From positions 32,481 to 96,480 of the forward strand of contig DAOVXQ010000003.1 of NCBI GenBank assembly GCA_030636025.1: a stretch of DNA of 64,000 nt. The letters are read 5' to 3'. Under the pieces are notes generated by a model, which was not told the origin of the DNA, searched no databases, and saw only the letters and a list, made by a program, of their open reading frames with translations. This stretch comes from an archaeon. Its GTDB lineage: Archaea; Nanobdellota; Nanobdellia; Pacearchaeales; GW2011-AR1. The position numbers and the translations under genes were made by a program. Positions 15,511-55,345 of this stretch are shown in pieces. Every line of letters begins with the position of its first letter. Position 1 is the first letter of the stretch.

Positions 15511-15517
15511 TTTAAAT
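15511..15517 (+). promoter_or_regulatory. TATA-like box upstream of tRNA-Ser fragment (b)
   Basis: TTTAAAT lies within ACACAAACCTTTAAATTCT, centred ~28 nt upstream of GCCGACA. The same 19-mer recurs at 16224-16242. Confidence 0.5.
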
Positions 15518-15541
15518 TCTCAATCTTTCTTTTATTTTTAA

Positions 15542-15682
15542 GCCGACATCGCATACCCCTCTGGGCATACCCAAAGGGCACAAGCAAGAGCCTCTGAGGA
15601 GGTAATGGTATTGCCGAGCAAAAGCAATTTTAGTATATAGATAAAAATAAGGAATTGCTTTTGGGAGCAGGATTGCTAATCC
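15542..15682 (+). pseudogene. tRNA-Ser fragment (b): 5' half with two insertions, ending after the anticodon loop
   Basis: GCCGACATCGCATA + 49-nt insertion (15556-15604) + ATGGTATTGC + hairpin CAAAAGCAATT/AATTGCTTTTG + CAGGA-TTGCTAA-TCCAG. No T arm or 3' acceptor follows. Confidence 0.65.
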
Positions 15683-15745
15683 AGTCAAACAAAATAGGGC
15701 AGTTAGTAAATAAATTCTTATAAATGATAATTATTTAGAAAATTC

Positions 15746-16216: not shown

Positions 16217-16233
16217 TATATTAAACACAAACC

Positions 16234-16240
16234 TTTAAAT
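16234..16240 (+). promoter_or_regulatory. TATA-like box upstream of tRNA-Ser fragment (c)
   Basis: Same ACACAAACCTTTAAATTCT block as at 15501-15520, ~30 nt upstream of GCCGACA at 16267. Confidence 0.5.
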
Positions 16241-16266
16241 TCTTAAAATATTGTATATTTTCATAA

Positions 16267-16339
16267 GCCGACATCGCATACCCCTCTGGGCATACCCAAA
16301 GGGCACAAGCAAGAACCTCTAAGGAGGTAATGGTATTGC
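16267..16339 (+). pseudogene. tRNA-Ser fragment (c): acceptor 5' strand plus 49-nt insertion plus D-arm remainder
   Basis: Identical to (b) over GCCGACATCGCATA[49 nt]ATGGTATTGC except for two G-to-A differences in the insertion. It diverges after the D arm. Confidence 0.65.
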
Positions 16340-16395
16340 GGAAATATTCCATAACAATGGATTTTTAAGGCATATCTGCTTTGCAGATATGAAAA

Positions 16396-16476
16396 GCCGA
16401 CATCGCATAATGGTATTGCACTAGATTGCTAATCTAGACCCTTCGGGGTTCCCAGGTTCGATTCCTGGTGTCGGCG
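16396..16476 (+). tRNA. tRNA-Ser (GCT)
   Basis: Acceptor GCCGACA/TGTCGGC, discriminator G, anticodon arm CTAGA-TTGCTAA-TCTAG, long variable arm ACCCTTCGGGGTTC, T arm CCAGG-TTCGATT-CCTGG. Total 81 nt. Confidence 0.9.
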
Positions 16477-16507
16477 TAATATGGCTGAAAGCCATACACC
16501 AAGAATT

Positions 16508-16565
16508 TAATCCTGTGTAGGGGTGCTGCAGGGGATGTGCCCCTGCTTCGTTCCTGGTGTCGGCG
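16508..16565 (+). pseudogene. tRNA-Ser fragment (e): 3' portion from the anticodon loop to the acceptor end
   Basis: TAATCCTGTGTAGGGGTGCTGCAGGGGATGTGCCCCTGCTTCGTTCCTGGTGTCGGCG. The last 19 nt match the intact tRNA 3' end apart from a 1-nt deletion. The trailer hairpin is paralogous to the trailer of the intact gene. Confidence 0.6.
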
Positions 16566-19899: not shown

Positions 19900-19947
19900 A
19901 GTTTTTACTATAACAATTATTATAAATCTAATATTAATATATTAACT

Positions 19948-20319
19948 ATGGACCCCCCAAAGTATTTTGTTTTAACTCCTGATAAAAAAGAGATTGATTG
20001 GTTAATCTTAAAAGTGGATACTAATGCTAAATTAGAAGAGAGATTAAGTGAAATAAGTTGTGTTAATTATAATGTTGGTATTATTTATTATGATGGAAGA
20101 AAAGGTTGGGATAAAGGGGTTGCACATTATGAAATCCCTCTTGACCCGTGGAATAGAATTATTTTAGGTATAGATAAAGAAAGAAACCTTAAGCTTTTAC
20201 AAGACCCAAAAGAAGATTTTGAGGTTACAATAAAAGAAATAAATGATATAAGGGCTGAAGCATTAAGAGAATATAAAGACCCGGTCTTATTAGCAATAGG
20301 ATATATTGCTTGTAGTTAA
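19948..20319 (+). CDS. Hypothetical protein
   Basis: 123-aa ORF. Confidence 0.4.
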   Translation: MDPPKYFVLTPDKKEIDWLILKVDTNAKLEERLSEISCVNYNVGIIYYDGRKGWDKGVAHYEIPLDPWNRIILGIDKERNLKLLQDPKEDFEVTIKEINDIRAEALREYKDPVLLAIGYIACS

Positions 20320-20361
20320 TTTCTCAAAAACATTTAAATATCTATTTTATCTTAATATAAA

Positions 20362-21879
20362 ATGAGGATTAATATTTTAATCGGCGGAAAAGCAGGGCAG
20401 GGAATCAACAAAATTTCTGAAATAGTTTCGCAAGTTTTAGTTTCTCAGGGGTATTTCACATTTAATTATCGGGATTACCCTTCGCTTATCCGGGGCGGAC
20501 ATAATTTTAACATTCTTTCGGTTTCTGACAAAAGAGTTGGAAGTTATGAAACTAAATTAGATATAATTATTGCAATGGATGAAAATACTATTGAAAAACA
20601 CAAATTAGAATTAAAAAAACAAGGAGTGATTGTTGGGCATAAGACCTTGGAGGATTTGGGAAGAAACTTAAATGTTGCCCTCGCAGGTTGCCTGATTAAA
20701 ATTTTAGGAATAAATAAAGAATCATTAATTGATGAAGTGCAAAAACAATTTAACAGTAAAGAAAGTAATTCTGCAGCTGAAAAAGGATTTGAATCTCAGA
20801 AGCAAAAGTTTGATTTGAAAAAATTAAATAATAAAATTTCAATTATGGCTGGTTCGCAGGCAGTTGCACAAGGTGCTGTGAATTCCAGAATTGATTTATA
20901 TTTGGCATACCCAATGACTCCAGCGACAGGAGTCATGCACGAGTTGGCTTCAAACCAGATTGAAAATAAATTAATGGTATTTCAACCAGAAAATGAAATT
21001 ACTGTTGTAAATGCAGGATTAGGAGCGTCATTTGCAGGAGCAAAAGTCATGGTCGGAACCTCTGGCGGAGGCTATGATTTAATGACAGAAGGTTTAAGTT
21101 TGCAAGGAATGTCTGAAATCCCATTGGTAGTTTATTTGGCCTCAAGACCAGGCCCTGCAACAGGAGTCCCAACTTATTCAACTCAGGCAGATTTAGATGT
21201 TGCTTTACGAGGAGGACACGGGGAATTCCCGCGAGTCGTAATTGCACCAGGAGACCCAATCGAATGCATTGAAAAAACAAACGAAGCATTTTACCTCGCT
21301 GAAAAATTTGGAACATTGTCAATTGTTTTAAGCGACAAACATTTAGCAGAATCTGAATTTAGTTCAGATAGAAAACCAAAAAAACCACTAAAAGTTGAAA
21401 TTAAAAGAAAATTACTCGGAGAAGGAATTATCAAAACTTCTTCTTATGAACATGATGTCGTCGGGAACACAACTGAAAATGCAAAATTAACACAAGAAAA
21501 TGCAGATGCCAGAGTTGCAAAATATGAAAACATTAAAAAAGAATGCTCTAAATTTGAGATGATTAAAATTTATGGAAAAAAGAATTCAAAAAATTTGATT
21601 ATCGGATGGGGAAGCACAAAGACAGTTATTTTAGATGCAATTGAAAATTTGGATTATAAATTTTTGCAGGTTTTGTATGTAAAACCATTATCAAATGAGA
21701 TTAAAAAAGAAATCCAAAAAGCAGATAAAGTTATTTTAGTTGAGCAAAATGTTACAGGACAATTAGGAAGATTAATCAGAGAAAAAACAGGAATAAAAAT
21801 CAAGAACAGAATTTTAAAATACGACGGAAGACCTTTTGCAAGTGATGAATTAAAAAGAGGGATTGAAAAAATAAAATGA
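20362..21879 (+). CDS. 2-oxoacid:ferredoxin oxidoreductase, fused gamma-alpha subunit
   Basis: N-terminus MRINILIGGKAGQGI is gamma-like, followed by an alpha-like YPMTPAT core. There is a 4-nt overlap with the beta gene. Confidence 0.85.
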   Translation: MRINILIGGKAGQGINKISEIVSQVLVSQGYFTFNYRDYPSLIRGGHNFNILSVSDKRVGSYETKLDIIIAMDENTIEKHKLELKKQGVIVGHKTLEDLGRNLNVALAGCLIKILGINKESLIDEVQKQFNSKESNSAAEKGFESQKQKFDLKKLNNKISIMAGSQAVAQGAVNSRIDLYLAYPMTPATGVMHELASNQIENKLMVFQPENEITVVNAGLGASFAGAKVMVGTSGGGYDLMTEGLSLQGMSEIPLVVYLASRPGPATGVPTYSTQADLDVALRGGHGEFPRVVIAPGDPIECIEKTNEAFYLAEKFGTLSIVLSDKHLAESEFSSDRKPKKPLKVEIKRKLLGEGIIKTSSYEHDVVGNTTENAKLTQENADARVAKYENIKKECSKFEMIKIYGKKNSKNLIIGWGSTKTVILDAIENLDYKFLQVLYVKPLSNEIKKEIQKADKVILVEQNVTGQLGRLIREKTGIKIKNRILKYDGRPFASDELKRGIEKIK

Positions 21880-33713: not shown

Positions 33714-34346
33714 ATGGTAGAAAATATTACCAACTTAGAAATAGAAATAATCCGTTTATATAAAAATAATTATCTTAAAGAGATTTACATAAGAGAGATG
33801 GCTAAATTACTTGAAAAAAGCCATGTTACTCTTCTTCCTCACTTAAAAAATCTTGAAAAAAGAAATATCCTAATTTCAAAAATTTCTGGTAAAAATAAAA
33901 ACTACAAACTAAATATGGGCAATAATCTATCTAAGGAATATATTTCTATGGCAGAAAAACAAGATACTATTTCCATAATAAAAAAAGAGTTTTTTATAAA
34001 AAAAATTTATGATGAAACTCTAAATTTAGATTTAAATGGGATTATGGCACTATTTGGGAGTTATGCATCTGGGACATATAATAAAAAGAGTGACATAGAT
34101 TTATTTTACATAGGTTCAATCACAGAAAATCAAAAAAAATCAATAAAAAACATGGGAAGACTTTACAAAAAACGCATTCATTTAAGTGTTATGAATTTAA
34201 ACCAATTCAAAAAATCTTTAAAAGAAAATATAATAATAACCAAAGAAATAATAAAAAACCACATAATCCTGCAAAATTCAGACACATTCATAAATTCATT
34301 ATGGAAATATTATAATGGAAAAAGAGAATTTAACATGGTGTTTTAA
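33714..34346 (+). CDS. Nucleotidyltransferase (MNT-type antitoxin) with N-terminal wHTH
   Basis: LFGSYASGTYNKKSDIDLFYIG (GSxxxG...DxD). Confidence 0.7.
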   Translation: MVENITNLEIEIIRLYKNNYLKEIYIREMAKLLEKSHVTLLPHLKNLEKRNILISKISGKNKNYKLNMGNNLSKEYISMAEKQDTISIIKKEFFIKKIYDETLNLDLNGIMALFGSYASGTYNKKSDIDLFYIGSITENQKKSIKNMGRLYKKRIHLSVMNLNQFKKSLKENIIITKEIIKNHIILQNSDTFINSLWKYYNGKREFNMVF

Positions 34347-34818
34347 AAAAGAAAGAGGATTAAAAATAATTGAAACTAATGAGAATCTTGTTAAAACATA
34401 TTTAAAAAAGTCAAAGAGTGCATTAAATATGCTTAATTCAGCAATTAGCAAAGATGAACTTGATTGGGTTTTAGACACTTCGTATTATGCAAAATATTTT
34501 TCAGTTTATGCTCTTTTTATGAAGATTGGAATTAAATGTGAAATACACGATTGCACAATATCTGCACTTAAGATATTTGTTGAAGAAGGAATTTGCACTA
34601 AAGAAATATATGAAGAACTTGAAAAATCCAAAGAATTAAGAATAAATGCATTATACTATGAAAAAGAATTTGGGAGGCAAGATATTATAGAAAGAGCAGA
34701 TAAAACTCCTGATTTTTGCTTAAAAATTGAAAAGATTATTAACAATATTACCAACGATGAGATTAATAGCATTAGAAATAAGTTTATTGATTTTGAAAAA
34801 ACACAAACCCCCCACTAA
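34315..34818 (+). CDS. HEPN-domain protein (toxin partner of MNT)
   Basis: It overlaps the MNT gene by 32 nt. The helical protein has LKKSKSALNMLNSAI...YYAKYFSVYALFMKIG, typical of the HEPN N-terminal helices. Confidence 0.6.
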   Translation: MEKENLTWCFKKERGLKIIETNENLVKTYLKKSKSALNMLNSAISKDELDWVLDTSYYAKYFSVYALFMKIGIKCEIHDCTISALKIFVEEGICTKEIYEELEKSKELRINALYYEKEFGRQDIIERADKTPDFCLKIEKIINNITNDEINSIRNKFIDFEKTQTPH

Positions 34819-35702
34819 GCAACCTTCTCTTTTTTCTTAGGATACAAATCAACATAATCTAAATTTTTTCCAATTTTCGGATGTTCTTTTTTAATTAAAT
34901 CAATCGCCTGTGTAATATCCATATCTTTTTGTGCAACTATTGCATGATATTTTTCCCTCGCCATTTTCAAACCAGTAGCTAAAACATCAACATCTGTTTC
35001 TGAAACTTTACAATGCTTTTCTAAATATTCATGAGTTTTTTTAATTCCACTCATCCCCTGACCCCGCATATCAAACTTATCCCTTCTTGCTAATTTTTTT
35101 AACCTCGCTGAATTTTGAGAAAGAAGCTGAAATTCCTTTGGAGACAAGTCACCAATTTTTCTGTTCCCACTAATTACATCGTCCAAAATTGGAGCAAGTG
35201 CTTCATACATTCTTGGCTTCTCGGTTTTCTCTAAATATTTTTTAGCACTTTTCCTATATTTTTCAAATCCCTCAACCTCATAACTATTATCCTCAACAAC
35301 TTTTTTTAAAGGAAAATATTTAATTTCATCTAAGACAGAATTAGGAACATAACTTTTCTTATAATTTTTTAAAATTCTTTCAACTTGTGGGGGTGAGCGT
35401 TTTATAAATGCAGAAGCATCCCCGATTAATGCAACTTTATTTTTATTTGGTTCTATATTACTTATCCTGCTCAAAATATCATCAACATTTATCTCCTCTG
35501 CAATAGCTTCTAATTTTTGTCCAGTAATAATTAAAACAATTCCACCCCCCACCAACCCCAACCCAATAAAAAACCAAACCTTACTAATCGTTGACGAAAT
35601 ATCAATAACTGCCCCAGTCAATCCAGCAAACGGCTGAAAAATAATTATAAAAATTCCCAATAAAATTAAACCAAAACCAAATTTTTTAAACCTGTTTTTC
35701 AT
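34815..35702 (-). CDS. Membrane protein (2 N-terminal TM helices) of unknown function
   Basis: 295-aa ORF. The first 9 codons and the promoter lie inside the 68-bp direct repeat. Confidence 0.55.
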   Translation of the reverse strand: MKNRFKKFGFGLILLGIFIIIFQPFAGLTGAVIDISSTISKVWFFIGLGLVGGGIVLIITGQKLEAIAEEINVDDILSRISNIEPNKNKVALIGDASAFIKRSPPQVERILKNYKKSYVPNSVLDEIKYFPLKKVVEDNSYEVEGFEKYRKSAKKYLEKTEKPRMYEALAPILDDVISGNRKIGDLSPKEFQLLSQNSARLKKLARRDKFDMRGQGMSGIKKTHEYLEKHCKVSETDVDVLATGLKMAREKYHAIVAQKDMDITQAIDLIKKEHPKIGKNLDYVDLYPKKKEKVA

Positions 35703-35742
35703 AAATAAAATTAGATGAATGTTTATTTAAATGTTTAGAAAA
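35675..35742. repeat. 68-bp direct repeat, left copy (island boundary)
   Basis: AACCAAATTTTTTAAACCTGTTTTTCATAAATAAAATTAGATGAATGTTTATTTAAATGTTTAGAAAA is identical by eye to 38262-38329. Confidence 0.9.
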
Positions 35743-36050
35743 TTATTTTAAACAAGTTTAATTCTTTAAAATATAAGAAATTCTATGCCTATGATACAAT
35801 TAAAATTATTTCTCATTTTAAAGGCGCATTTCTTTTCTTTACTAAATCATTTCTCTTACCTATTAAAAGAACAAAAAACATTAGCCCAAAAAATAATTCT
35901 TCTCGATAAAGTCAAGACTATCTGTCCGTAGGACCAAAAGTTCCCCCTTTTATATTTTAGGCTTTTTGAATTTTTCTTTTCAGGTGGGGAGGGGGTGGTG
36001 CCGACGACATTAAATTAGAGAGATTGCCCGACTTTTTTGCTTCTTTCTTT

Positions 36051-36497
36051 TTAAGAAAGAAGATGAGGAGTTCCGTTGTTTGCATAAGAATAAATGAGCC
36101 ACGAATTTCCTAGAGATCCACTTATAAAAACTACGCTTCCACCGCTTAAAGCTATTTCAATTTGTTTTTGTCCATGATTCTTAATGTGGCAACTCATTCC
36201 GTAAAACGGAGAACCGACATCTATATGCCCTTGACCTTGTTCATCCAAATAAATACTTCCATTATTCAGTTGAGCCTGAACAGAACCTACCATAAAATTC
36301 TGAACTAAAGGAGTATTTTTTCCTGCTCCAAGATCTCCACGAGATTTATTAATGCTACCCTCTATTTGATTATGACAATCTCTACAAATATCAGGCCTTA
36401 AATTTGATTGGTCATCATTGCCCATATATTTTTGAGCAACCAAGTGGTGAGTTGTTAACTTCTTTTCTTTTCCACAAAAACTACAAATTACAACCAT
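36051..36497 (-). CDS. HNH-like zinc-finger nuclease domain protein with beta-rich C-terminal domain
   Basis: CSFCGKEKKLTTHHLVAQKYMGNDDQSNLRPDICRDCHNQIE (CxxC...HH...N...CxxCH). Confidence 0.6.
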   Translation of the reverse strand: MVVICSFCGKEKKLTTHHLVAQKYMGNDDQSNLRPDICRDCHNQIEGSINKSRGDLGAGKNTPLVQNFMVGSVQAQLNNGSIYLDEQGQGHIDVGSPFYGMSCHIKNHGQKQIEIALSGGSVVFISGSLGNSWLIYSYANNGTPHLLS

Positions 36498-36503
36498 TTT
36501 ATT

Positions 36504-37481
36504 TTAATCCTCGATCTTTATATCTGCATATGAATTTTTTATAAATTCCAAGTATTTTTTGTGAATCTTTAAATTTCTCTTTTGTATTTCAATAAGTTTT
36601 TGAAGCCTCTTTACAAGGGGGTTTTCCAAAGTGTAATATTCTAGGGGGTTCTTTTTTCCAGGGTAGCGTGAAAAATTAAAGTGAGGTTCTATAAAAAAAT
36701 TCAAAGTTGAACTTACTGCATGAGAGGTTCCACCATAAACCATAGACTCTGCATGTCTAAGTGCGATATGCCTAAGAAATTCTCCAGTTACATTAAGTGC
36801 TTCTTTCTCCTCTTGTTCGCTTATTCCAATTCCCTCCTCTCTTTTTATTTTAGAAAAGGCCTTAATATTGCTAATCCATTCATTTGCAAGTTCTTCTTCT
36901 GTAAGTTTGTCTAACTTTTTAGCTTCAAACGTTTCTGCATTAAGTAATACCTTATCCATCTCCGAGAGGTTCTGGTCTAAAATTTCAAGATTGTCTGAAT
37001 AAATTTTTCCCTTTTCACTAACGCTCTTAATAATTCCTTCTGCCTCAATAACTTTTTTTTGATAGTCTTCTAGGTTTAATTTTTTAATCATAGGTATTTC
37101 TTTTAACTTGGGATTATTCTTTATAGCCTCCTTTAAATTAATAGTTTTTTTTAGGTTGGCTTTAATATCTTCGAGGTGTTTTTTAGAAGGGAAATGCCCA
37201 ACCTTTTCTTTTAATTCCTGTGATTTAAGAATCTCATTTAGCAAAAAGAGTGCTTTTGTGCTTTTCTCCACACTTTGTTGAAATGAAGATACAGAATTTG
37301 GGTATTTCTTATTTTCAAATAAAATTTTAGAGGATTCAAGATCTTCTTCTGCAATTTTTATTAATTCAAAAGCATAATCCACTTCTTTCTGATATTCTAG
37401 CCTTCTCTGGATATCTTCCTTTCCAGGCCCTTCTGGCATTTTCTTTAAAGCTTTTTCAACAGATTCTGGATCTGATATCAT
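36504..37481 (-). CDS. HEPN-domain protein with a ~170-aa coiled-coil insertion
   Basis: The N-terminal helices AEEDLESSKILFENKKYPNSVSSFQQSVEKSTKALFL and the C-terminal NFSRYPGKKNPLEYY match the HEPN (xxRYP) pattern. RHIALRH is also present. Confidence 0.55.
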   Translation of the reverse strand: MISDPESVEKALKKMPEGPGKEDIQRRLEYQKEVDYAFELIKIAEEDLESSKILFENKKYPNSVSSFQQSVEKSTKALFLLNEILKSQELKEKVGHFPSKKHLEDIKANLKKTINLKEAIKNNPKLKEIPMIKKLNLEDYQKKVIEAEGIIKSVSEKGKIYSDNLEILDQNLSEMDKVLLNAETFEAKKLDKLTEEELANEWISNIKAFSKIKREEGIGISEQEEKEALNVTGEFLRHIALRHAESMVYGGTSHAVSSTLNFFIEPHFNFSRYPGKKNPLEYYTLENPLVKRLQKLIEIQKRNLKIHKKYLEFIKNSYADIKIED

Positions 37482-37990
37482 GAACTTCTCTCCTTTTCTT
37501 CAGGATAAAAATATTTATCATGAATTTCTTTTACTCCCAAGTCACTTTTTGCTAATTTCATTTCCTTCATCATCTCATCTCCTTTTTCCCTAGTTAGTGG
37601 CTTGAAGGTTCTACCATAATCAATATAATCTGCATTTGTCCATTTTTCCAGAGAATCTTTTGATAATTTCAGGTTTATTTTTTCTTCATTTAATTTAACC
37701 CAAAACCTGAAAAAGACTAATATAAAAATTCCCAGAACAATAAAGTTAAAGCCCTTAAGTGAAATCTTTCCATTAATCAAATCATAAACCCCGGTTGCTA
37801 AGTAGCTTCCTAGAATTGCGAACAAAATTCCATACATAAAAAACTCTGATTCTCTTATTTTCTGCGTCAAAGATTTTTCATGATCATAATAAGATTCTAA
37901 AATTTTTCCTTTATCTTTTTTGCTTAAATACACTCTTCCGCCCTCGGGATTTTCACCCATTCTTTCAGTCCAAGATTTTTCTTCTTCCAT
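37478..37990 (-). CDS. Two-TM membrane protein (first gene of the island operon)
   Basis: 170 aa with TM helices FFMYGILFAILGSYLATGVY and FNFIVLGIFILVFFRFWV. ATGA overlap with the next gene. Confidence 0.5.
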   Translation of the reverse strand: MEEEKSWTERMGENPEGGRVYLSKKDKGKILESYYDHEKSLTQKIRESEFFMYGILFAILGSYLATGVYDLINGKISLKGFNFIVLGIFILVFFRFWVKLNEEKINLKLSKDSLEKWTNADYIDYGRTFKPLTREKGDEMMKEMKLAKSDLGVKEIHDKYFYPEEKERSS

Positions 37991-47410: not shown

Positions 47411-47458
47411 CTCCTAATTTCTAATGTCTTTTAGATTTAAATAGTTTACTAAATGGAC

Positions 47459-48339
47459 GGCTCTGTTGAAAATCTCCTAGCATACAAGATTTAAATTGTG
47501 TGCTATTCCCTTACAAAATATTTCTGTTCTCATTCCTGCAATCTTTTTGGCTTTAATCGTTCCACCATACTTTCTTTTTATCGCAGAAAATCCTGCCTCA
47601 ACATTACTTCTTAAATTATATTCCCTTTGATTCCAGTTTTTCATTTGCTTTTTTCTAAAATGCCCTCGATGAATATTCTTTTTTAATGGGATAAATGTTT
47701 GGATGGATTTCCAATAGCATAATTCATAAAGCCATTCAGCACAGTAACCCTTATCTCCAGAAAAGATTTTAACGTCGCTGATTCTCTTTAAAAGATATTT
47801 TACATCTTGCATATCATGTCTAGGGGTTGTTCTAATTCTCATCACTAAAAACTTTTTAGTTTTCACGTCCAGCAAGGCTGAAAGTTTGGTATAATCTTTT
47901 GGATTTGTTCCATTAATCCTTTTCAAATAATGAAACCCTGGATTTGTTTTGGAAAATCCTGTTCCATCAATAGCGACTTTTCCCGACGACAAACCTGCAG
48001 TTATCTTCAAAAGTTTTTGCCACAAACCAACAGGAATTCTTTTTCTACTTCTACACAATGCAGAATAAGTTGAACATTTTTGTCCAAACATATCTAAAGT
48101 TTTCTCAACTCTCCTTAAACTTAATTGACAAACTTGCATTATCAAAAGTCCAGAAATATGATTTTCAAGTTTATACTTTTTTGGTCCAAATCTATGCAAA
48201 AATTCAGGATATTTAATTTTTTTAAGCAACCGCTTAATTTTTATTTGAAGATTTCTTATATGTTTCATGTTTATCACCTCAGATAAACATAGTTTTCAGG
48301 GTAGATATATTTTACCCTGAAGACTTTTTCAACAGAGCC
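47459..48339 (-). mobile_element. Intact IS4/IS5-type insertion sequence (881 bp)
   Basis: 14-bp perfect terminal inverted repeats, GGCTCTGTTGAAAA (47459-47472) and TTTTCAACAGAGCC (48326-48339). 9-bp target duplication TAAATGGAC (47450-47458 and 48340-48348). Single transposase ORF. Confidence 0.85.
47477..48277 (-). CDS. DDE transposase (IS4/IS5 type)
   Basis: AIDGTGF (D), GDKGY (D) and YNLRSNVEAGFSAIK, which is the Y-x2-R-x3-E-x6-K signature. Confidence 0.85.
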   Translation of the reverse strand: MINMKHIRNLQIKIKRLLKKIKYPEFLHRFGPKKYKLENHISGLLIMQVCQLSLRRVEKTLDMFGQKCSTYSALCRSRKRIPVGLWQKLLKITAGLSSGKVAIDGTGFSKTNPGFHYLKRINGTNPKDYTKLSALLDVKTKKFLVMRIRTTPRHDMQDVKYLLKRISDVKIFSGDKGYCAEWLYELCYWKSIQTFIPLKKNIHRGHFRKKQMKNWNQREYNLRSNVEAGFSAIKRKYGGTIKAKKIAGMRTEIFCKGIAHNLNLVC

Positions 48340-48343
48340 TAAA

Positions 48344-48422
48344 TGGACCTACCAGAGATCGCGGCCTCTTTAATAAAAAGAGGTCATCCCCACAGGGAAA
48401 CTGCTGAATTCTCGGTGTAAAC
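48344..48422 (-). pseudogene. tRNA-Val 3'-half copy V3 (with 44-nt replacement in the T arm)
   Basis: TGGACCTACCAGAGATCG[CGGCCTCTTTAATAAAAAGAGGTCATCCCCACAGGGAAACTGCTG]AATTCTCGGTGTAAAC. The IS target duplication lies in its 3' end. Confidence 0.65.
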
Positions 48423-48506
48423 TAATGGGTCAAATTACTTCTTTTTTGAAAGAACAATATTTCACTTAACAGAAAGACATATAAATACAAAAAGTATACT
48501 TTTAGT

Positions 48507-48725
48507 ATGCAACTTAGAATTAAAGAAGAAACACACCTTGCAATTACAAAACTTAAAGAACAACTTTTGCTAGATTCTTATGATGATGTTATCTGGCATT
48601 TTATTGAACCTTTTCTTCCTTTGTCTAATTCAAGCGAAAGTTTAAGAAAAGAAGCCTTAGATGAATTTAAAAAAGGAGAAACAATTTCTTTTGAAGAAAT
48701 TTTAGCTGAGCATGAAAAAGATTGA
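48507..48725 (+). CDS. Putative antitoxin (partner of RelE-like toxin)
   Basis: 72-aa ORF overlapping the toxin gene by 14 nt. Confidence 0.45.
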   Translation: MQLRIKEETHLAITKLKEQLLLDSYDDVIWHFIEPFLPLSNSSESLRKEALDEFKKGETISFEEILAEHEKD

Positions 48726-48957
48726 ATTTTCTTCAAAAGCAAAAAAGAAATATTTTAAATTACCCTTTAATATAAGAAATTTTATTAATGCAAGATTAAA
48801 AGATTTACAAAATGAAAAAAGAGTTGATATTAAAAAATTACAGGGCTATAAAAGTTGTTTTAGATTAAGAATTGGCGGATATAGAATTTTATTAGAATTA
48901 CAAAATAATATCTGGATTGTATTTGATATAGATACTAGAAAAAAGGTTTATGGATAA
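48712..48957 (+). CDS. RelE/ParE-family toxin
   Basis: KKLQGYKSCFRLRIGGYRILLELQNNIWIVFDIDTRKKVY. Confidence 0.7.
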   Translation: MKKIEFSSKAKKKYFKLPFNIRNFINARLKDLQNEKRVDIKKLQGYKSCFRLRIGGYRILLELQNNIWIVFDIDTRKKVYG

Positions 48958-49035
48958 TTTATAATATATTCAAAGGTTAATAATTTAATAATTTACTAAT
49001 ATAGTTAGGGGGATGAATTTATATTTAAAAAAACA

Positions 49036-49113
49036 TGGACCTACGCGGGATCGCGGCCTCTTTAATAAAAAGAGGTCATCCCCACAGGGAAACTGCTGAA
49101 TACTCGGTGTAAA
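49036..49113 (-). pseudogene. tRNA-Val 3'-half copy V2 (with 44-nt replacement in the T arm)
   Basis: TGGACCTACGCGGGATCG[same 44 nt as V3]AATACTCGGTGTAAAT, followed by a ~40-nt block shared with V1. Confidence 0.65.
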
Positions 49114-49151
49114 TAATCATATACCTTTAGTAACTATTTTGGTAATAATCA

Positions 49152-50072
49152 TTATTTCCCATTAATCATAAATTTCCTAAAATAAACCTTCTCTTTCTTT
49201 GTTGTATGCCATGTTTCATCATCTCCGCCAAAGAACAAACTAAACATAACTTGATTAATGCCATAACTTTTTTTCTTCCTTAAATTTATCTTTCTCTCCA
49301 ATACTCTCTTTCCATTAACCCATGCGAAAATTGTGTCCTTCTTTTTTGGATTTTCGGAGAGTTTCATGCGCATTTTAATATTATACCATTTATTTGGCTC
49401 AATAAACACTTTTTTATTTTTGTATTTGTATATCTGGTCATCTCCCTGATTTGTTTTCCTATCTGGATAATACATATATTGCACAAGATATGCTTTATGA
49501 GATTCTTTTATTAGATCCCTACAATACCATTCATATTTTATAATTTCTTTACTAATAGTTCTCATTTGAGCTAATATTTTCTCTTTACTTTCATCGGACC
49601 TGACGATTTTTTTTAGCATCTTAAATTCTTTTGATAAAGGTCTTTTTTGAATTACTAATTTTTCAAAATCTGTCTCTCTCCACATTAACCTAGCAGAAAA
49701 ACCGTTTTGATATTGTTCTTGTGTTCCCCCACACCCCATTGAAGCTCCTCCGCCGAATCCTGGAAGCTTTCCCCCACGAACAAAATCAAAATTGTCTCCA
49801 AACATAATATCATATTCAAAAGTAGCATCGTCTAAATTTCTTGGAAAATTTAATCTCCAAAAAGAGCCCCCTTTGCTTTCAGTGTCTTTTGGAATTGTTA
49901 TTTCTAAAACTTTCTCGCCTTTCTTTTTTATAATTCTACATCTTTTTTCAGCAACACCCCTTCTTGGTTCAGAACCCCAATCTTTGATAAAAGTATCAAC
50001 ATCATATAAGCCAATCTTATGATCTGCAAAATCAATAACCTTTAAGTACAAATTTTCTTTTTTATTTTCCAT
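49152..50072 (-). CDS. Cassette ORF, possibly polysaccharide-lyase-like
   Basis: 306 aa. GGKLPGFGGG...GCGGT...NGFSARLMWRE is reminiscent of the PF14099-type lyase fold. This is a weak call. Confidence 0.35.
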   Translation of the reverse strand: MENKKENLYLKVIDFADHKIGLYDVDTFIKDWGSEPRRGVAEKRCRIIKKKGEKVLEITIPKDTESKGGSFWRLNFPRNLDDATFEYDIMFGDNFDFVRGGKLPGFGGGASMGCGGTQEQYQNGFSARLMWRETDFEKLVIQKRPLSKEFKMLKKIVRSDESKEKILAQMRTISKEIIKYEWYCRDLIKESHKAYLVQYMYYPDRKTNQGDDQIYKYKNKKVFIEPNKWYNIKMRMKLSENPKKKDTIFAWVNGKRVLERKINLRKKKSYGINQVMFSLFFGGDDETWHTTKKEKVYFRKFMINGK

Positions 50073-50104
50073 CTATTAAATGAGCTATTTAGACTTTAAA
50101 AACA

Positions 50105-50145
50105 TGGACCTACCAAGGATCGAACCTGGGAATACTCGGTGTAAA
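50105..50145 (-). pseudogene. tRNA-Val 3'-half copy V1
   Basis: TGGACCTACCAAGGATCGAACCTGGGAATACTCGGTGTAAAT has 1 mismatch to the intact gene over its 3' half and breaks in the anticodon loop. Confidence 0.75.
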
Positions 50146-50200
50146 TAATAATACCCTAAAGGTAACTATTTTAGTAATAAACTTTTGTGTTTATTTTAGT

Positions 50201-50938
50201 TCATATATCCTTACTATATCCTTTCCATTTCTTTTTAAATATTTTATAATAATTATCATCCCATATTTTTTTTTGTTTTTTCTTTCCTAAAACAAAACTA
50301 GAAGCTCCCCCCTCGTGATATACAAAAACCTCGGGATTAATATAAACATTATACTTTTTTTTATAAAGAGTAAACAATATATCTATATCTTCTCCAGAAG
50401 CAATTAGATACTCTTCTGAAAAACCTCCAATTTCGTCAAGTATTTTTTTCTTGAATAACAAAAACTCTCCCCAAACCCCCTGATTCCATCTCTTTAACTT
50501 TATCAAACTACTTGCTTGATTAAGGAGAGGTGACTTTTTTATTGATTTTATCCTTTTTGTTTCAATACCAAAATTATAATTCCATAAGGTTAATGGAGAA
50601 ACCATCCCACATTTTTTATCTTTTTCAAAAGGTTTTCTCAATTTTTTAAACCAACCTTTTGGAACTATGGTATCATTATTAGCAATACAAATAAACTTCC
50701 CAGAAGATAGTTCTATCCCCTTATTCCATGCCTTTGCTAAATCTGTTCTTTTATTAAATCTATAACAAATATCTGAAGATTTTTTTATAAAATTAATTGC
50801 TTTTTTGTCTTTTGAACCATTATCTATTAAGATTAGTTCATAATTACAATTAGTATATTGTCTAATACTTGAAATAAATCTTTTAGTTATTTCTAGGTTA
50901 TCTATCACAACTGCAATAATTGAAAGTTCTTTGTTCAT
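50201..50938 (-). CDS. Family 2 glycosyltransferase
   Basis: LSIIAVVIDNLEITKRFISSIRQYT...ELILIDNGSKD...NNDTIV. Confidence 0.75.
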   Translation of the reverse strand: MNKELSIIAVVIDNLEITKRFISSIRQYTNCNYELILIDNGSKDKKAINFIKKSSDICYRFNKRTDLAKAWNKGIELSSGKFICIANNDTIVPKGWFKKLRKPFEKDKKCGMVSPLTLWNYNFGIETKRIKSIKKSPLLNQASSLIKLKRWNQGVWGEFLLFKKKILDEIGGFSEEYLIASGEDIDILFTLYKKKYNVYINPEVFVYHEGGASSFVLGKKKQKKIWDDNYYKIFKKKWKGYSKDI

Positions 50939-50969
50939 CTTATTCTCTTTTTTTATTTATTATAAAAAA

Positions 50970-51040
50970 TGGACCTACCAGGGATCGAACCTGGGAATAC
51001 TCGGTGTAAACGAGTCAGTTTGCCACTAGCTTATAGGTCC
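50970..51040 (-). tRNA. tRNA-Val (TAC)
   Basis: Sense strand: GGACCTA TA AGCT AGTGGCA AACT G ACTCG TTTACAC CGAGT ATTC CCAGG TTCGATC CCTGG TAGGTCC A. Total 71 nt with one C-A mismatch in the D stem. Confidence 0.8.
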
Positions 51041-51121
51041 TTAAAATATTATTGATTTTTATATTTTATAAAGTTAATTATTTAAAATTTTTGGCAAGGT
51101 TATAAAGAAATAATAATATTC

Positions 51122-52102
51122 TTATGCTCTTGATTCAATTAAACCAGCAATATAATCTCTAGCACCTTGAACAGCTTCCATTTCTTCAGAAGTTACTGCA
51201 GCCGGGGTTGAATATTTTTCTCTGGGCAATGCTACAGAACAAACTAAAGAAGGTTTTACTATTCTTGGTTCACATCTATCATTTCTGTTTTCTGCCCAAG
51301 TTGTCCAAGCTCCACCCACAATAGATTTTCCTCTTGCCTGTATATATTCACTACCATGTTCTCCACCTTCAGGTCTTAAATAATTATCAGCGTTTAATCC
51401 TATTGATAATGAAAATTTTCTACCTTCATGTTTAAATTCAAATTCCGGTGCCTCATCAAATCCACCAGATGCAAAATATTGTGTCCATTGATTTACATTT
51501 TTTAAAGCTCCATTAGGTAAAGGTAAACTTTTAACAGCATCTTCTAAATTTAAATTAAACCACCAATCATCAACAACACCCAATCTACCTTTTGCACTTG
51601 AATTAACTAAAGCCATAGGTTTTTCAATAGTTTCAGCAAGTTTTCCTTCTGGCTCTCTTCCAACATAAGCAGCACATAAACTTAATACATATTTGTCTCC
51701 AAATCTATTTCCTTCCACCGTAGTTTTAAAGAAATTAGTGCCCATTGCATCATGATCAAATCTTTTATGAAATCTACCGCTCCTTTGTAAAGAAGATACT
51801 GCCTCATTAACTAATTTTTCAGTAAATCCCTCTGCGTTTTTAGCTCCAGCCAATAATAATAAACATGCACCCATTCCTCCACCTTCATTTCCTAAAGCAT
51901 TCATAAGATTATTTTGTGTAGCTCTTGCTCCTTGAACTGAACCACCATTATATACTGCAATCGCTTGACCAAATTCTTCAGGACTATCTAGAATTATACC
52001 TTGCCTATAATCATCTCTATCCACCCCTTCAATTTGTGATTCTCCACTAAAACTCTCTGGAGTTGTTTTACATTGTTTTTCTGGATTAGTAATTTTTGCC
52101 AT
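51122..52102 (-). CDS. Hypothetical protein, compositionally atypical (G/A-rich, K-poor)
   Basis: 326-aa ORF adjacent to the tRNA-Val 5' side. Confidence 0.45.
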   Translation of the reverse strand: MAKITNPEKQCKTTPESFSGESQIEGVDRDDYRQGIILDSPEEFGQAIAVYNGGSVQGARATQNNLMNALGNEGGGMGACLLLLAGAKNAEGFTEKLVNEAVSSLQRSGRFHKRFDHDAMGTNFFKTTVEGNRFGDKYVLSLCAAYVGREPEGKLAETIEKPMALVNSSAKGRLGVVDDWWFNLNLEDAVKSLPLPNGALKNVNQWTQYFASGGFDEAPEFEFKHEGRKFSLSIGLNADNYLRPEGGEHGSEYIQARGKSIVGGAWTTWAENRNDRCEPRIVKPSLVCSVALPREKYSTPAAVTSEEMEAVQGARDYIAGLIESRA

Positions 52103-52240
52103 TTTCTTTAAATTATAACTGCATTAATCCTTTTTAAAGATTCCGTTAATGTTATCACTTAAAAATTAAGAAATATTGCCGAGTAGAATTCAAATTTACA
52201 CTTCACAAATATTTATAAATTAACAACAACAAAAAATTAT

Positions 52241-52675
52241 ATGCCAATACAAACAGTTGAAGTAAGGATTAAGAAACTGCATCCAGATGCAAAGATTCCA
52301 ACTATTGGAACAGGCCACTCTGCAGGATTTGACATTTATTCTATAGAAGACAAAGTAATTCCTCCAGGAGAAACAGCCACCATAGAAACAGGAATTGCAT
52401 TAGAAATCCCAATCGGAAAAGTAGTTTGTTTATGGGACAGGAGCGGAATGGGTTCTAATTCACAGCACAGATTTGCAGGACTTTTAGATTCAGATTACCG
52501 AGGAGAATATAAAATAGTAATTCACAACCATAATAAAAAACCTTATGAAATAAAAAAAGGAGACAAAATTGTCCAAGGAGTTATACAAGATTATTACAAA
52601 CCAATTTTCAAAGAAGTCAAAGAACTTTCAGACTCTCAAAGAAGCGAAGGAGCATTTGGTTCAACAGGAAAATAG
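52241..52675 (+). CDS. dut: dUTP diphosphatase
   Basis: GHSAGFDIYS, WDRSGMG, GLLDSDYRGE and the C-terminal RSEGAFGSTG. Confidence 0.9.
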   Translation: MPIQTVEVRIKKLHPDAKIPTIGTGHSAGFDIYSIEDKVIPPGETATIETGIALEIPIGKVVCLWDRSGMGSNSQHRFAGLLDSDYRGEYKIVIHNHNKKPYEIKKGDKIVQGVIQDYYKPIFKEVKELSDSQRSEGAFGSTGK

Positions 52676-52717
52676 AAACAACTAAATTTAAATATCAATT
52701 ATTCTAATCAATTTTAT

Positions 52718-52788
52718 GCGCCAGTAGTTTAGTGGTAGAATATCTCGTTGCCAACGAGGTGACCCGAGTTCAATTCTCGGCTGGCGCA
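52718..52788 (+). tRNA. tRNA-Gly (GCC)
   Basis: Acceptor GCGCCAG/CTGGCGC, anticodon arm TCTCG-TTGCCAA-CGAGG, T arm CCGAG-TTCAATT-CTCGG. Confidence 0.85.
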
Positions 52789-52842
52789 TTTTTTATTTTC
52801 AGTCTCATATATTCTTTTATAATAGAATTTCATTGGATTTTT

Positions 52843-53394
52843 ATGGATTGGATAATATTTTTAAGCGATTTAATTAGATTTGCGATAATTACTGGAGCAA
52901 TATCATATATAATAAAATATTATTTTGATAAAAAATTTGAAGAATTTAAAAATAGAATGGAACAGGAAAAAATTAGATTTTCAAAACTACATGAAAAAAG
53001 AGGAGAAGTAATTTGCAAACTCTATGGGTTACTTGATGATTTAGATAAAACAATGGGCATTTTAACTAGTCCTGCAGAATTTACAGGAGACCTTCCAAGA
53101 AAAGAAAAAATTCAGAATGCCGCGGAATCTGGAGATAGGTTTGTAGAATATTATTCTAAGAATGCAATTTATTTTAGAGAAGATATTGAGATTCTACTAA
53201 ATGAATTAAAAAGTAACTTCAGAAAATCATTTATAATTTATAACCTTAGCCCACATCATGGAGAAAAAGAATGGGATGAAAAGATTAAAGCATGGGAGAT
53301 AATTATTGACAAGATTCCTCCCCTAAAAAAGAAACTTAAAGACGAGTTTAGAAGAATTTTGGGAGTTCATACAAAAATAAGGTTAAAAAAATAA
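52843..53394 (+). CDS. Membrane-anchored hypothetical protein
   Basis: The start was moved to MDWIIFLSDL..., because the track ORF start overlaps tRNA-Gly. Confidence 0.45.
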   Translation: MDWIIFLSDLIRFAIITGAISYIIKYYFDKKFEEFKNRMEQEKIRFSKLHEKRGEVICKLYGLLDDLDKTMGILTSPAEFTGDLPRKEKIQNAAESGDRFVEYYSKNAIYFREDIEILLNELKSNFRKSFIIYNLSPHHGEKEWDEKIKAWEIIIDKIPPLKKKLKDEFRRILGVHTKIRLKK

Positions 53395-53418
53395 AAAACT
53401 ATATTACTGAATTCTATA

Positions 53419-53628
53419 TCAAAATTTAACTCCAATCATTTCTAAAAATTTGAGGATTAATGCTACAGCTATTAAAAGAATTGCTACATAAAAGAAAATT
53501 ATAATAAAAATTGCAGGCCCTCCTAATGAGGCAAATAAAAGTGGAGACAAAAGCGCCCCCATGATTATAAATACAATAATTGCAAATACTCCTTGTAATA
53601 AGTCTTCAAAATCATTTCTTCTTCTCAT
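53419..53628 (-). CDS. Small two-TM membrane protein
   Basis: 69-aa hydrophobic ORF. Confidence 0.4.
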   Translation of the reverse strand: MRRRNDFEDLLQGVFAIIVFIIMGALLSPLLFASLGGPAIFIIIFFYVAILLIAVALILKFLEMIGVKF

Positions 53629-53854
53629 TTTTATTTACCTCCTTTTCCTTATTTTTATCATTAAATATAAATAAATCTAAAATTTTCCACGTCGCCATAA
53701 GTATAAATAATGCAAATATTATTTTTATTAAAAGTGCAATGTGTTCATCTGGAATATCATAATTAAAAAATATCCCTAATACTCCAATCACAGAGAATAT
53801 TATTGTAATTACAATTGCCTTCTCACTAGTTTTTAATTCATGCACGCCTCTCAT
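53612..53854 (-). CDS. Small two-TM membrane protein
   Basis: 80-aa ORF overlapping the downstream gene by 17 nt. Confidence 0.4.
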   Translation of the reverse strand: MRGVHELKTSEKAIVITIIFSVIGVLGIFFNYDIPDEHIALLIKIIFALFILMATWKILDLFIFNDKNKEKEVNKNEKKK

Positions 53855-53934
53855 AAAATTTAATTAAGCCCAAGGTATATAAATTTATTGTAACAAAATA
53901 AAAACATATAAGATTTTACCCACAGCAGGCACAT

Positions 53935-54279
53935 TCAACCACCAAAACTCCCAGAACCAAATTTTACTAAGATTTTCCTAATCTCATTAATAGTTTCTTG
54001 TTGATTTTGTTTATCAGACATTCTGACAAATCTCATTAATACATCTACCAAACTTTCCCTATCCAATAATTTCGATTTATATCCATCTGTAATAAAATAA
54101 AACCTAAATGATTTATATTTAAGTTCCTTAATTACAATTCCACCAACACTCCCTAAAACTTTTCCTTTTTTTGGATTGTCCTCTAAAGAATACATTTGCC
54201 TAAAAATTATTTTAGATTCACTTTTAAATTTTTTTAAAATCTTATTTTTTAGAATTTCATCAATACTTACTTTGGCCAT
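53935..54279 (-). CDS. Putative RelE/HigB-fold toxin
   Basis: GKVLGSVGGIVIKELKYKSFRFYFITDG. It overlaps the upstream small gene by 13 nt. Confidence 0.4.
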   Translation of the reverse strand: MAKVSIDEILKNKILKKFKSESKIIFRQMYSLEDNPKKGKVLGSVGGIVIKELKYKSFRFYFITDGYKSKLLDRESLVDVLMRFVRMSDKQNQQETINEIRKILVKFGSGSFGG

Positions 54280-54473
54280 TTTTTATCTGCCTCTTTTATG
54301 GCCTCTTCAATAGGAATAAATCTCTCATCAGACATTAAAAATTCCTTTAATTGCTCTTTAACTGCTAATGAATAAATCCTTTTAAGAATATCCTCATAAC
54401 TCTCGCCTTTAATCCCGAAAGAAGATATTTTGTCTTTTGTTTTTTTACTTAATTGAATTGTTGTTGTTTCCAT
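54267..54473 (-). CDS. Putative antitoxin
   Basis: 68-aa helical ORF immediately upstream of, and overlapping, the toxin-like gene. Confidence 0.4.
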   Translation of the reverse strand: METTTIQLSKKTKDKISSFGIKGESYEDILKRIYSLAVKEQLKEFLMSDERFIPIEEAIKEADKKWPK

Positions 54474-54569
54474 TTAATCTATAATTACTATGGTGGCTAT
54501 AGTTTTTAAATATTTCCATCATTCCAAAAATGGACCTAACGTCCACCCTCAAATCAAAAAAAATTAAAT

Positions 54570-55022
54570 TTATTCAAGCTGTGCTCGGTTTCCTTGACCT
54601 TTCATTCCAGAGCCCTGCATCAAACCTTGCTTCAAACCTTTTCCACCGCCGAAACCAGTTCCCTCTCTAAGACCAACGCCATTTCTCAAACCAAGCTCTG
54701 CCCTCAACTCCGAAGCTCTTGCAAAATCTCCTGCCACTCCAGCCTCGTGAGCTTCGACAAATGTCGCAAAATTATCCTCAGTCACAACAGTTAATACTCG
54801 CGGACTTCTCCCAGATTCAGTCATCAAACTAACCCAAGAATCGTAATCTAAATTGTCAAAAGCATCTTGCATTGGTTCATGTCTTTCTTCAGAATAGTCT
54901 GGTCCTTCAACAGAATAATTTCCTTGATAAGCTGCAACAAAACTAATTCCCAAAAGAGCAACCATCCCCAAAGCAAACACGCCCAACATCTTTTTATTTT
55001 CCATTTTTATTTTACCTCCCAT
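54570..55022 (-). CDS. Secreted protein with Gly-rich C-terminal tail
   Basis: Signal/TM MLGVFALGMVALLGISFVAA. The tail is GLRNGVGLREGTGFGGGKGLKQGLMQGSGMKGQG. Confidence 0.45.
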   Translation of the reverse strand: MGGKIKMENKKMLGVFALGMVALLGISFVAAYQGNYSVEGPDYSEERHEPMQDAFDNLDYDSWVSLMTESGRSPRVLTVVTEDNFATFVEAHEAGVAGDFARASELRAELGLRNGVGLREGTGFGGGKGLKQGLMQGSGMKGQGNRAQLE

Positions 55023-55084
55023 GATTTAATTAAATAAATAAGATTAAGTTTCTTTATAAGAAAGATGGACTTGAAGTCATAAAA

Positions 55085-55345
55085 TTATTCCCCCCTAAAA
55101 ATACTCTTCGTAACCGCAACAATCCAACCCCAATGCAAAGCCAGATGAATCAGAACAAGAAGCCCCATAATAAGGCCGCTCCAATCATGCAATATAGAAA
55201 TATTACTAAAACTTAAAGTTCTATAAGCAGAAACTCCAACAATTTTTATTAATCCAGGCCATTTAATCAAACCAGTAATAAAACAAATAAAAAAAGATAT
55301 TGCCAATCCAACATCAATCCAATAATTTAATTTTAATTTATTCAT
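55085..55345 (-). CDS. DUF4405-like membrane protein
   Basis: 86 aa. YWIDVGLAISFFICFITG...HDWSGLIMGLLVLIHLALHW. Confidence 0.45.
   Translation of the reverse strand: MNKLKLNYWIDVGLAISFFICFITGLIKWPGLIKIVGVSAYRTLSFSNISILHDWSGLIMGLLVLIHLALHWGWIVAVTKSIFRGE

Follow-up and report, generated by a model that had tools for sequence, protein, structure and literature searches.

In a 64-kb stretch of an archaeal contig (DAOVXQ010000003.1; hereafter the window, whose positions serve as coordinates, with L-numbers for the loci compared with it), the intact gene for tRNA-Val(TAC) is followed by three displaced copies of its own 3′ half. These copies separate a glycosyltransferase gene, a polysaccharide lyase gene and a toxin–antitoxin (TA) pair, and an insertion sequence (IS) sits at the outermost of them. 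We interpret the array as the outcome of repeated site-specific recombination at an attachment (att) site in the anticodon loop of tRNA-Val, now devoid of an integrase, and give this interpretation a probability of roughly 0.7. The original prediction for this DNA, made from its letters, had described the repeats, the cargo genes and the IS and had proposed serial integration of related elements. Its description proved accurate almost to the base; its interpretation held in part, in that serial integration at the tRNA site is supported, whereas an intron in the outer copies and the reduction of each element to its cargo are not.

The window has a GC content of about 32%, and its open reading frames (ORFs) include archaeal ribosomal protein L10e, a thermosome subunit and TyrRS. 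Homologues of its genes carry the source labels Pacearchaeota, Nanoarchaeota or Woesearchaeota, which identifies the host as a member of the DPANN archaea.

Architecture of the tRNA-Val array

The intact tRNA-Val gene lies on the minus strand at 50970–51040, as predicted. It is recovered by ARAGORN and by the Rfam tRNA model (56.8 bits) and folds into a cloverleaf with the anticodon loop TTTACAC at 51004–51010. The three copies of its 3′ half are found on the same strand where they had been reported, and their formal alignment to tRNA-Val holds at a level far above chance: an 18-mer from the acceptor and T stem has four matches at ≤2 mismatches where 0.02 are expected, and a 16-mer from the anticodon side has four where 0.44 are expected. 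V1 (50105–50145) is a displaced half of 41 nt that runs from the anticodon loop to the discriminator base. It differs from the gene by a single base, which turns the T stem into CTTGG and keeps the pairing through G-U. ARAGORN recognises a valid tRNA-Val when V1 is fused to the 5′ half of the gene. V2 (49036–49113) contains a 45-nt block at 49054–49098 that occupies the place of the 5′ strand of the T stem, the 3′ strand being CCGCG. The outermost copy, V3 (48344–48421), has the same block at 48362–48406; V2 and V3 are 95% identical, with four differing positions, and their left arms differ.

All three copies end at GTGTAAA on the plus strand and thus include the whole 7-nt anticodon loop, and their similarity to the gene is lost exactly at position 31/32 in the sense of the tRNA. 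The predicted sharp break shared by the copies is therefore real, whereas its placement inside the loop has to be corrected to the loop's 5′ edge. Direct repeats that match the 3′ part of an adjoining intact tRNA gene are what characterizes arrays of tRNA-targeted elements. The anticodon loop, at which V1, V2 and V3 are all delimited, is one of the recognised sublocations of tRNA att sites, next to the T loop and the 3′ end (PMC8371274).

Read in the sense of the tRNA, the inner part of the array consists of the tRNA gene, 31 nt, the GT2 glycosyltransferase gene, 55 nt that include arm A1, V1, 32 nt and the lyase gene; the outer part continues with the 38-nt arm A2, V2, the TA pair in inverted orientation, arm C, V3, the IS and a 69-aa ORF. 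A unit is accordingly made up of a 3′ half, a T-rich spacer of 31–32 nt, one gene or TA pair and an arm of 38–55 nt, and measures 0.7–1.0 kb. A contig from a separate Logan assembly (L001) independently confirms the inner two-thirds of the array, namely the succession of tRNA gene, GT2, V1, lyase and the beginning of V2; it equals window positions 49072–55205 at 100% identity and ends within the 45-nt block. For the outer third, from V2 through the TA pair and V3 to the IS, the support comes from the window assembly alone.

The end of L001 within the block and the close similarity of V2 and V3 are what an artefact could look like, be it a mis-join across the 79-nt V2/V3 repeat or slippage or unequal crossing-over with later insertions of unrelated genes. 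We regard this explanation as very improbable: L001 repeats the sequence between the tRNA and V2 without a difference, the four differences between V2 and V3 together with their different left arms mark two real loci, a duplication leaves the foreign arms and the three unrelated cargos unexplained, and the target duplication of the IS spans the V3 end and the chromosomal flank coherently. Repeats of this type break short-read assemblies and can be mistaken for tRNA fragments in annotation; knowledge of the pattern is of use in delimiting the flexible genome in metagenome-assembled genomes (MAGs) of DPANN archaea.

Probable exchange at a fixed core

Further evidence for recombination comes from the sequences that adjoin the copies on the element side. 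Arm A1 (50146–50185, minus strand), next to the core of V1, is homologous to arm A2 (49114–49153, minus strand), which starts at the stop codon of the lyase gene and fills the 38 nt between stop and core. The homology that had been noticed over some 40 nt beyond the tRNA part amounts to 80% identity over 56 nt, with a global alignment score above that of all 500 shuffles. Since their arms are homologous, the GT2 and lyase units can be assigned to one family. The left arm of V3 (arm C, 48422 to about 48460) is unrelated to A1 and A2.

When the four sites are compared, their left sides are the tRNA 5′ half, arm A in V1 and V2, and arm C in V3; their right sides are a normal 3′ half in the tRNA gene and V1, and a half of the 45-nt type in V2 and V3. 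This mosaic of left and right halves argues for exchange at one fixed core, which we infer to be the anticodon loop TTTACAC. Written as a circle, each unit has an att site composed of an arm, TTTACAC and a 3′ half; the GT2 and lyase units have arm type and right-half type in common, and the TA unit combines arm C with the 45-nt half. The anticodon loop with its flanking stem is the overlap or core region of tyrosine integrases, including that of the archaeal SSV1 (PMC8371274). Four features together suggest repeated recombination of the tyrosine-integrase type: all copies break at the anticodon loop, the site halves are mosaic, the arms are foreign and the cargos are unrelated. We also counted in favour of integration that the GC contents of the GT2 gene (0.27) and the TA pair (0.24) are lower than that of the window (0.32). 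The proposed tandem integration at the tRNA 3′ half thus finds support in repeats with a common boundary and, for the inner two units, in arm homology.

In the mechanism we envisage, a tyrosine-recombinase-type enzyme would recombine circular units into the tRNA gene or a 3′-half copy left earlier, with a crossover in or beside the 7-nt anticodon loop, the att site of each unit being its short arm, the loop sequence and its copy of the tRNA 3′ half. Each insertion would rebuild a complete tRNA-Val and push the previous 3′ half outward, such that three rounds would lead to the succession of tRNA, GT2, arm–V1, lyase, arm–V2, TA pair and arm–V3. According to this serial-integration model, the present 3′ half of the tRNA would have been supplied by the GT2 unit. 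This unit is probably the latest insertion because its gene is nearest to the tRNA and is absent from the related locus L034. Excision of a GT2 circle would be expected to create a junction between arm A1 (…TATTATTA) and TTTACAC…CCCTGGTAGGTCCATTTTTTATAA, the tRNA-type right flank, and the corresponding empty site would join the tRNA 5′ half to the V1-type flank (…CCTTGGTAGGTCCATGTTTTTAAAG).

The cargo genes agree with what had been read from the sequence, as Pfam searches returned a GT2 glycosyltransferase, a lyase of 306 aa and a RelE/ParE-type TA pair. The GT2 protein (245 aa; 50201–50938, minus strand; PF00535, E 6e-18) has its ATG 31 nt past the tRNA 3′ end, behind a T-run and a TATA-like tract. 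The lyase of the PL14 type (49152–50072, minus strand; PF21294, Polysacc_lyase_14, E 1e-35) starts 32 nt past the 3′ end of V1. Orientated opposite to both, the TA pair (48507–48957, plus strand) comprises the overlapping ORFs of a putative antitoxin of 72 aa (48507–48725), without a family match in Pfam, and of an 81-aa toxin (48712–48957) that matches PF05016 (ParE_toxin) with an E-value of 9e-5, right at the family cut-off. Exact-protein look-ups of the toxin and of the 69-aa ORF found neither on record. The 31–32 nt past each tRNA 3′ end open with a T-run and an A/T tract (TTTTTTATAAT, TGTTTTTAAAG); as we read the sequence, such a spacer may serve as terminator of the tRNA and, by its position, as archaeal TATA box of a near-leaderless gene.

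The IS provides a relative date. It is an element of the IS5 family of 881 bp (47459–48339, minus strand) with a DDE transposase of 266 aa (47477–48277; PF01609, and NCBIfam transpos_IS5_2 at 136.9 bits, just under the cut-off of 140), perfect 14-bp inverted ends (GGCTCTGTTGAAAA) and a 9-bp target duplication (TAAATGGAC), the three features by which the family is recognised. The two copies of the duplication, read from the sequence, are at 47450–47458 and 48340–48348. As predicted, it falls on the very end of V3: it consists of the last 5 nt of V3 and 4 nt of the flank, and therefore the IS arrived after V3 was in place.

The 45-nt block in the outer copies

The block is 100% identical between V2 and V3. 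The original prediction had reported a shared 44-nt segment with a 7-bp hairpin; segment and hairpin (CCTCTTT/AAAGAGG) are there, and the length is 45 nt. The block replaces AACCTGGG of the gene, which can also be delimited as CCCAGGTT, and as a whole folds into three small hairpins (z −2.8). No further copies were found in the window, the loci compared, IMG/VR or the JGI metagenomes.

It had been suggested that the outer copies keep an ancestral insertion in the T arm. In this view they derive from a tRNA-Val gene with a T-arm intron, or from a split tRNA, that incoming elements replaced by an intron-less 3′ half. Archaea, DPANN members included, have introns at non-canonical tRNA positions. 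The block is perfectly conserved while the 34 flanking nt differ at four positions (Fisher test by hand, p ~0.03), and copies of a tRNA-Ser gene elsewhere in the window are cleanly interrupted in the D loop by 49 nt without the loss of any exon base. The structure of V2 and V3 speaks against an intron, as both have lost or changed the 5′ strand of the T stem. In addition, we joined the tRNA 5′ half to either copy, removed every single segment (1,712 variants per copy) and scored the products with ARAGORN: none of the V3 variants was a tRNA, and the tRNAs obtained from V2 had solely T stems with 3/5 pairs or an odd variable arm of 17 nt. A custom scanner, not validated on a known intron, detected no bulge-helix-bulge (BHB) motif with cuts at the block borders, and none that brackets the tRNA-Ser insert. 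Furthermore, the copies break at position 31/32 and not at the canonical split site 37/38, and Rfam recovered the intact gene alone, without seeing V1–V3 as tRNA even at E-values up to 5. On the strength of the excision enumeration and the BHB scan we reject the intron and split-tRNA reading, which we consider very implausible.

A different view of the block emerges from its alignment. With nhmmer, V2 and V3 align to the tRNA half through CAGCAGTT, which is matched to CCCAGGTT, and over its whole length the block aligns colinearly along T arm, acceptor strand and T-run flank, with a p-value of 0.005 against random segments of the window and of 0.019 against segments that contain a T-run. V2 and V3 could accordingly be compound relics, made up of a full 3′ half that has decayed and, behind it, a more recent copy that spans the T loop to the 3′ end (CGATC…CCA); judging from these alignments, we place this possibility somewhat short of even odds. 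The hairpin half of the block also resembles the left arm of V3 in inverted orientation (17/21 positions). Whatever its source, the block makes V2 and V3 unusable as parts of a tRNA and may in addition inactivate them as sites of recombination.

Related loci

The lyase family is widespread in Pacearchaeota and Nanoarchaeota metagenomes, and in two further lineages its members are located beside tRNA-Val(TAC) or a relic of it. The first, L034, can be read as a shorter array, of the kind that the original prediction had wanted to see in close relatives: tRNA-Gly and tRNA-Val(TAC) are followed 42 nt on by a lyase homologue with only 51% identity, and the GT2 unit is missing. In the second, L035 (= L175–L182), the lyase stop codon is followed after 39 nt by TTTACACCGAGT, at the place where the spacing in the window is 38 nt; the chance of finding such a 12-mer within 120 nt is estimated at ~6e-6 per locus. 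In the L035 organism an IS with a DDE transposase of 303 aa lies just upstream of the lyase gene, where several contigs break, and the downstream genes of L035/L175–L182 encode a PhageMetallopep-domain protein and a protein of >3,000 aa.

The gene next to the tRNA on its other side (51122–52102) encodes a protein of 326 aa that is conserved in ~70 DPANN protein clusters; it has no sequence match in Pfam, NCBIfam or the PDB and none among GTDB representatives. Its homologues at ~70% identity (L002–L013) have no tRNA-Val beside them, and therefore the array is not conserved synteny. A universally conserved cassette order, named in the original prediction as an argument against recent integration, is thus contradicted by relatives of this gene that lack the array. 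The tRNA-Gly(GCC) gene of the window (52717–52789) is 1.7 kb away from tRNA-Val and divergent from it, with the 326-aa gene and a dUTPase gene in between, and the two tRNA genes are adjacent and co-oriented in L034 (243–388). Their arrangement suggests a rearrangement at the tRNA-Gly/tRNA-Val pair.

The most extensive parallel is a metagenomic contig (L014 1–2791 = L191 61–2852; ENA ERZ4903055) with a lyase 74% identical to that of the window. It contains four sites of ~60 nt with the core TTGTTTACAC, of which R1 is a variant reading TTTATAC, and these separate at least four cassettes: a NUDIX gene, the lyase gene, a two-ORF RelE-like pair and a PemK-like pair. Its sites are mosaics as well, with a left half common to R2 and R3 and only loosely similar in R1, one right half common to R1 and R2, and another common to R3 and R4. 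The left arm of R4 aligns to the window's arm A and is homologous to A1; none of 500 shuffles reaches the score. In R1 and R2 the 7-nt core is flanked symmetrically, at a distance of 5 nt, by 12-bp inverted repeats (GATAAATCACCT). A BLASTP comparison of the window's TA pair with the TA-like pairs of L191 gave no match.

One-gene cassettes, TA cassettes and repeated recombination sites are also found in integrons, such that the array could be a true integron or an integrase-less cluster whose repeats are attC sites. Integrons have been reported in Nanoarchaeota MAGs (PMC9668308), and R2 of L014/L191 folds into a 12-bp hairpin (z −3.0). Nevertheless, this explanation is hardly tenable for the window, where the repeats are exact tRNA-Val 3′ halves and not imperfect palindromes. 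V1 with its arm shows no excess of structure upon single-strand folding (z +0.28) and hence no attC-like folding. The boundaries read ...GGTGTAAA|TAAT, without a GTTRRRY/RYYYAAC pair, no integron-integrase gene is present in the window, and the anchor is a tRNA gene and not attI.

Origin of the units

If the array arose by recombination at tRNA-Val, its units may have been small cassettes, mobilised in trans by an integrase whose gene lies elsewhere, or three larger elements, each whittled down independently. We lean slightly to small cassettes because the units are very compact and the array of L014/L191 has the same grain. The compactness is seen in the arm that starts at the lyase stop codon and in genes that start 31–32 nt past the tRNA 3′ ends. 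That each element had been reduced to its cargo, as proposed originally, was an assumption; given this compactness, integrase-less cassettes that were born small are at least as likely.

In its explicit form, the decay of larger elements means that three proviruses or plasmids with several genes and an integrase of their own integrated in tandem and were each deleted to one cargo gene, with their att sites kept. Tandem integration at tRNA genes and integrase loss after integration are documented for archaeal elements (PMC8371274), and the remnants of tycheposons are a precedent for tandem re-use of a tRNA site and for integrase-less elements. Moreover, in L095 (773–4488) a XerA-like tyrosine recombinase of 393 aa is encoded next after tRNA-Thr(GGT), with a lyase homologue of 76% identity 1.4 kb on, and therefore the lyase gene also rides in conventional integrase-bearing elements. 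However, such a history needs three independent reductions, each to exactly one gene or operon, that leave an intact arm directly at the stop codon (at 0 nt in the lyase unit) as well as a promoter-bearing spacer of 31–32 nt. Neither pseudogene debris nor integrase fragments are present between the copies, and L014/L191 displays the same grain of one to two genes over at least four units. We therefore judge this scenario somewhat unlikely. At 10837 of L095, 13 nt of the tRNA-Thr 3′ end recur (E 0.014) and could mark the far end of an element of ~10 kb.

A bolder version of recombination in trans is that DPANN of the Pacearchaeota type have an integron-like system of single-gene circles, the site of which is an arm plus the tRNA-Val sequence from the anticodon loop to the 3′ end. 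An integrase encoded elsewhere would insert and shuffle such circles at tRNA-Val or its copies and would thereby have built the arrays of both the window and L014/L191. In such a system V2 and V3 would keep cassettes locked in, their sites having been disabled by the 45-nt block. We consider such a system unlikely.

Several results weigh against repeated recombination at the tRNA-Val loop as the origin of the array. According to Pfam, no window ORF of ≥90 aa encodes a Phage_integrase or other recombinase, several of these ORFs being without a family match, and the gene next to the tRNA is GT2 and not the integrase expected inside an element. The circular or integrase-bearing elements with an arm and a tRNA-Val half that the original prediction had asked for were absent from viral contigs, in free or integrase-bearing form; the metagenome collection was scanned for the 45-nt block alone. 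If V3 is taken as the original chromosomal half, a non-functional tRNA bearing the 45 nt must once have existed; alternatively, the outer units, that of the TA pair among them, may have inserted into a distal copy and not into the gene, which avoids such a tRNA. Among the related loci, the arm of L035 shows no significant similarity to A2 (p 0.48), which led us to reject their homology and leaves the spacing and the 12-nt core as the matching features. The right halves of L014 beyond the core are not significantly tRNA-like and were rejected as tRNA-Val halves, and a model of the arm found no further sites in the 192 sequences (1.8 Mb) compared. Most metagenomic and GTDB lyase loci have no tRNA or att feature nearby, the GTDB loci L096–L108 being without tRNA-Val arrays, and the GT2 homologues with 82% and 68% identity occur in ordinary or variable contexts and not beside tRNA or att sequences.

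One of these contexts is found in L186 (GCA_036169915.1, 5636–10281), where the interval from the POR gene to the acetyl-CoA-synthetase gene holds the GT2 homologue of 68% identity together with genes of the NUDIX, MNT/HepT, PQ-loop and NYN types. In the window (17980–21879) the POR and acetyl-CoA-synthetase genes are parted by a single 123-aa ORF without a family match. The L186 segment is thus a variable region in a relative, without signs of a tRNA or att site.

The tRNA-Ser locus and other features of the window

A second tRNA gene of the window, tRNA-Ser(GCT) at 16396–16476, is associated with a mirror-image array (13985–16565). Copies of its 5′ portion are found upstream at 15542–15613 and 16267–16338, with a partial copy at 13985. 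The two 5′ copies have a promoter-like AACACAAACCTTTAAAT and the clean 49-nt D-loop insert. An anticodon-arm-like GATTGCTAATC follows at 14061 and 15671, past a long hairpin, and a copy from the T loop to the 3′ end is located at 16547–16565, 70 nt downstream of the gene. These copies separate single genes, namely an S8 peptidase gene and a 156-aa ORF. The predicted parallel between the two tRNA loci is real in kind, as partial copies carry an insert in both, and it does not extend to the inserts themselves: homology of the 45-nt block to those of tRNA-Ser is not significant (p 0.5, 0.11 and 0.04, uncorrected).

Among archaeal integrases, an att site in the 5′ half of a tRNA gene has been reported for the pTN3 group (PMC8371274). 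The tRNA-Ser locus is like a pTN3-like integration of Thermococcales in reiterating 5′ portions upstream of the gene, and differs in the lack of an integrase, the 49-nt D-loop insert and the single-gene units.

Elsewhere in the window, an ORF of 266 aa (9102–9902), in which an RNase HII domain begins at residue 57, overlaps tRNA-Met(CAT) (9795–9872) on the opposite strand; its start is probably over-extended. Genes of the TA or defence type are dense (10173–10505 and 33714–37990) and include HicA, two nucleotidyltransferase/HEPN pairs, an HNH protein and a PIN-like protein.

Comparison with known systems

The mobile elements of DPANN archaea, which live with tiny genomes and in dependence on hosts, have been little charted, as have the ways in which these organisms gain genes. 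If the array is indeed built of single-gene, integrase-less cassettes, it would represent a compact mechanism by which surface-sugar enzymes (GT2 and the polysaccharide lyase) and addiction modules are swapped between DPANN cells, and the logic of one gene plus one recombination site would have been invented a second, independent time beside integrons. If the units are merely decayed islands, the array is an ordinary and tidy example of tandem integration.

Among the systems closest to the array are the accreted islands that tyrosine integrases build at tRNA genes, such as those of the Islander type, the tycheposons of Prochlorococcus or gene capture of the SSV/pNOB8 type in Sulfolobus. In common with them, the array has an intact tRNA gene with displaced partial copies at the unit borders, a boundary at the anticodon loop, newer units nearest the gene and integrase-less remnants. 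The known elements measure ~5–25 kb, in contrast to the single-gene units of 0.7–1.0 kb described here; neither these units nor the 64 kb around them contain integrase, replication or virion genes. The arms of the array are ~40 nt long and its host belongs to the DPANN, which a review of archaeal recombinases mentions neither under this name nor as Nanoarchaeota (PMC8371274).

Integrons share with the array units of one gene with its own short site, TA cassettes and mosaic site halves. Where an integron has a folded attC, the array has an arm and a tRNA 3′ half as its site, and there is neither IntI nor attI. Its units bring a promoter-like tract of their own, and the array regenerates an essential tRNA gene. 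The array thus fails the defining tests of an integron (no attC, no IntI) as well as those of an intron-bearing or split tRNA.

A further relative in logic are the cis-mobilizable elements (CIMEs) of the Streptococcus ICESt1/ICESt3 family, att-flanked units without an integrase that are formed and moved by accretion with an integrase-bearing partner. Functional-looking att borders, the lack of recombination genes, and accretion and mobilisation by the integrase of another element would be common to both. CIMEs are bacterial, several kb in size and located beside a known integrative and conjugative element, whereas the array stands without an identified partner element. Compared with all of these systems, the general process of tandem integration at a tRNA gene is well known, and it is the small size of the integrase-less inserts that sets the tRNA-Val array apart as unusual.

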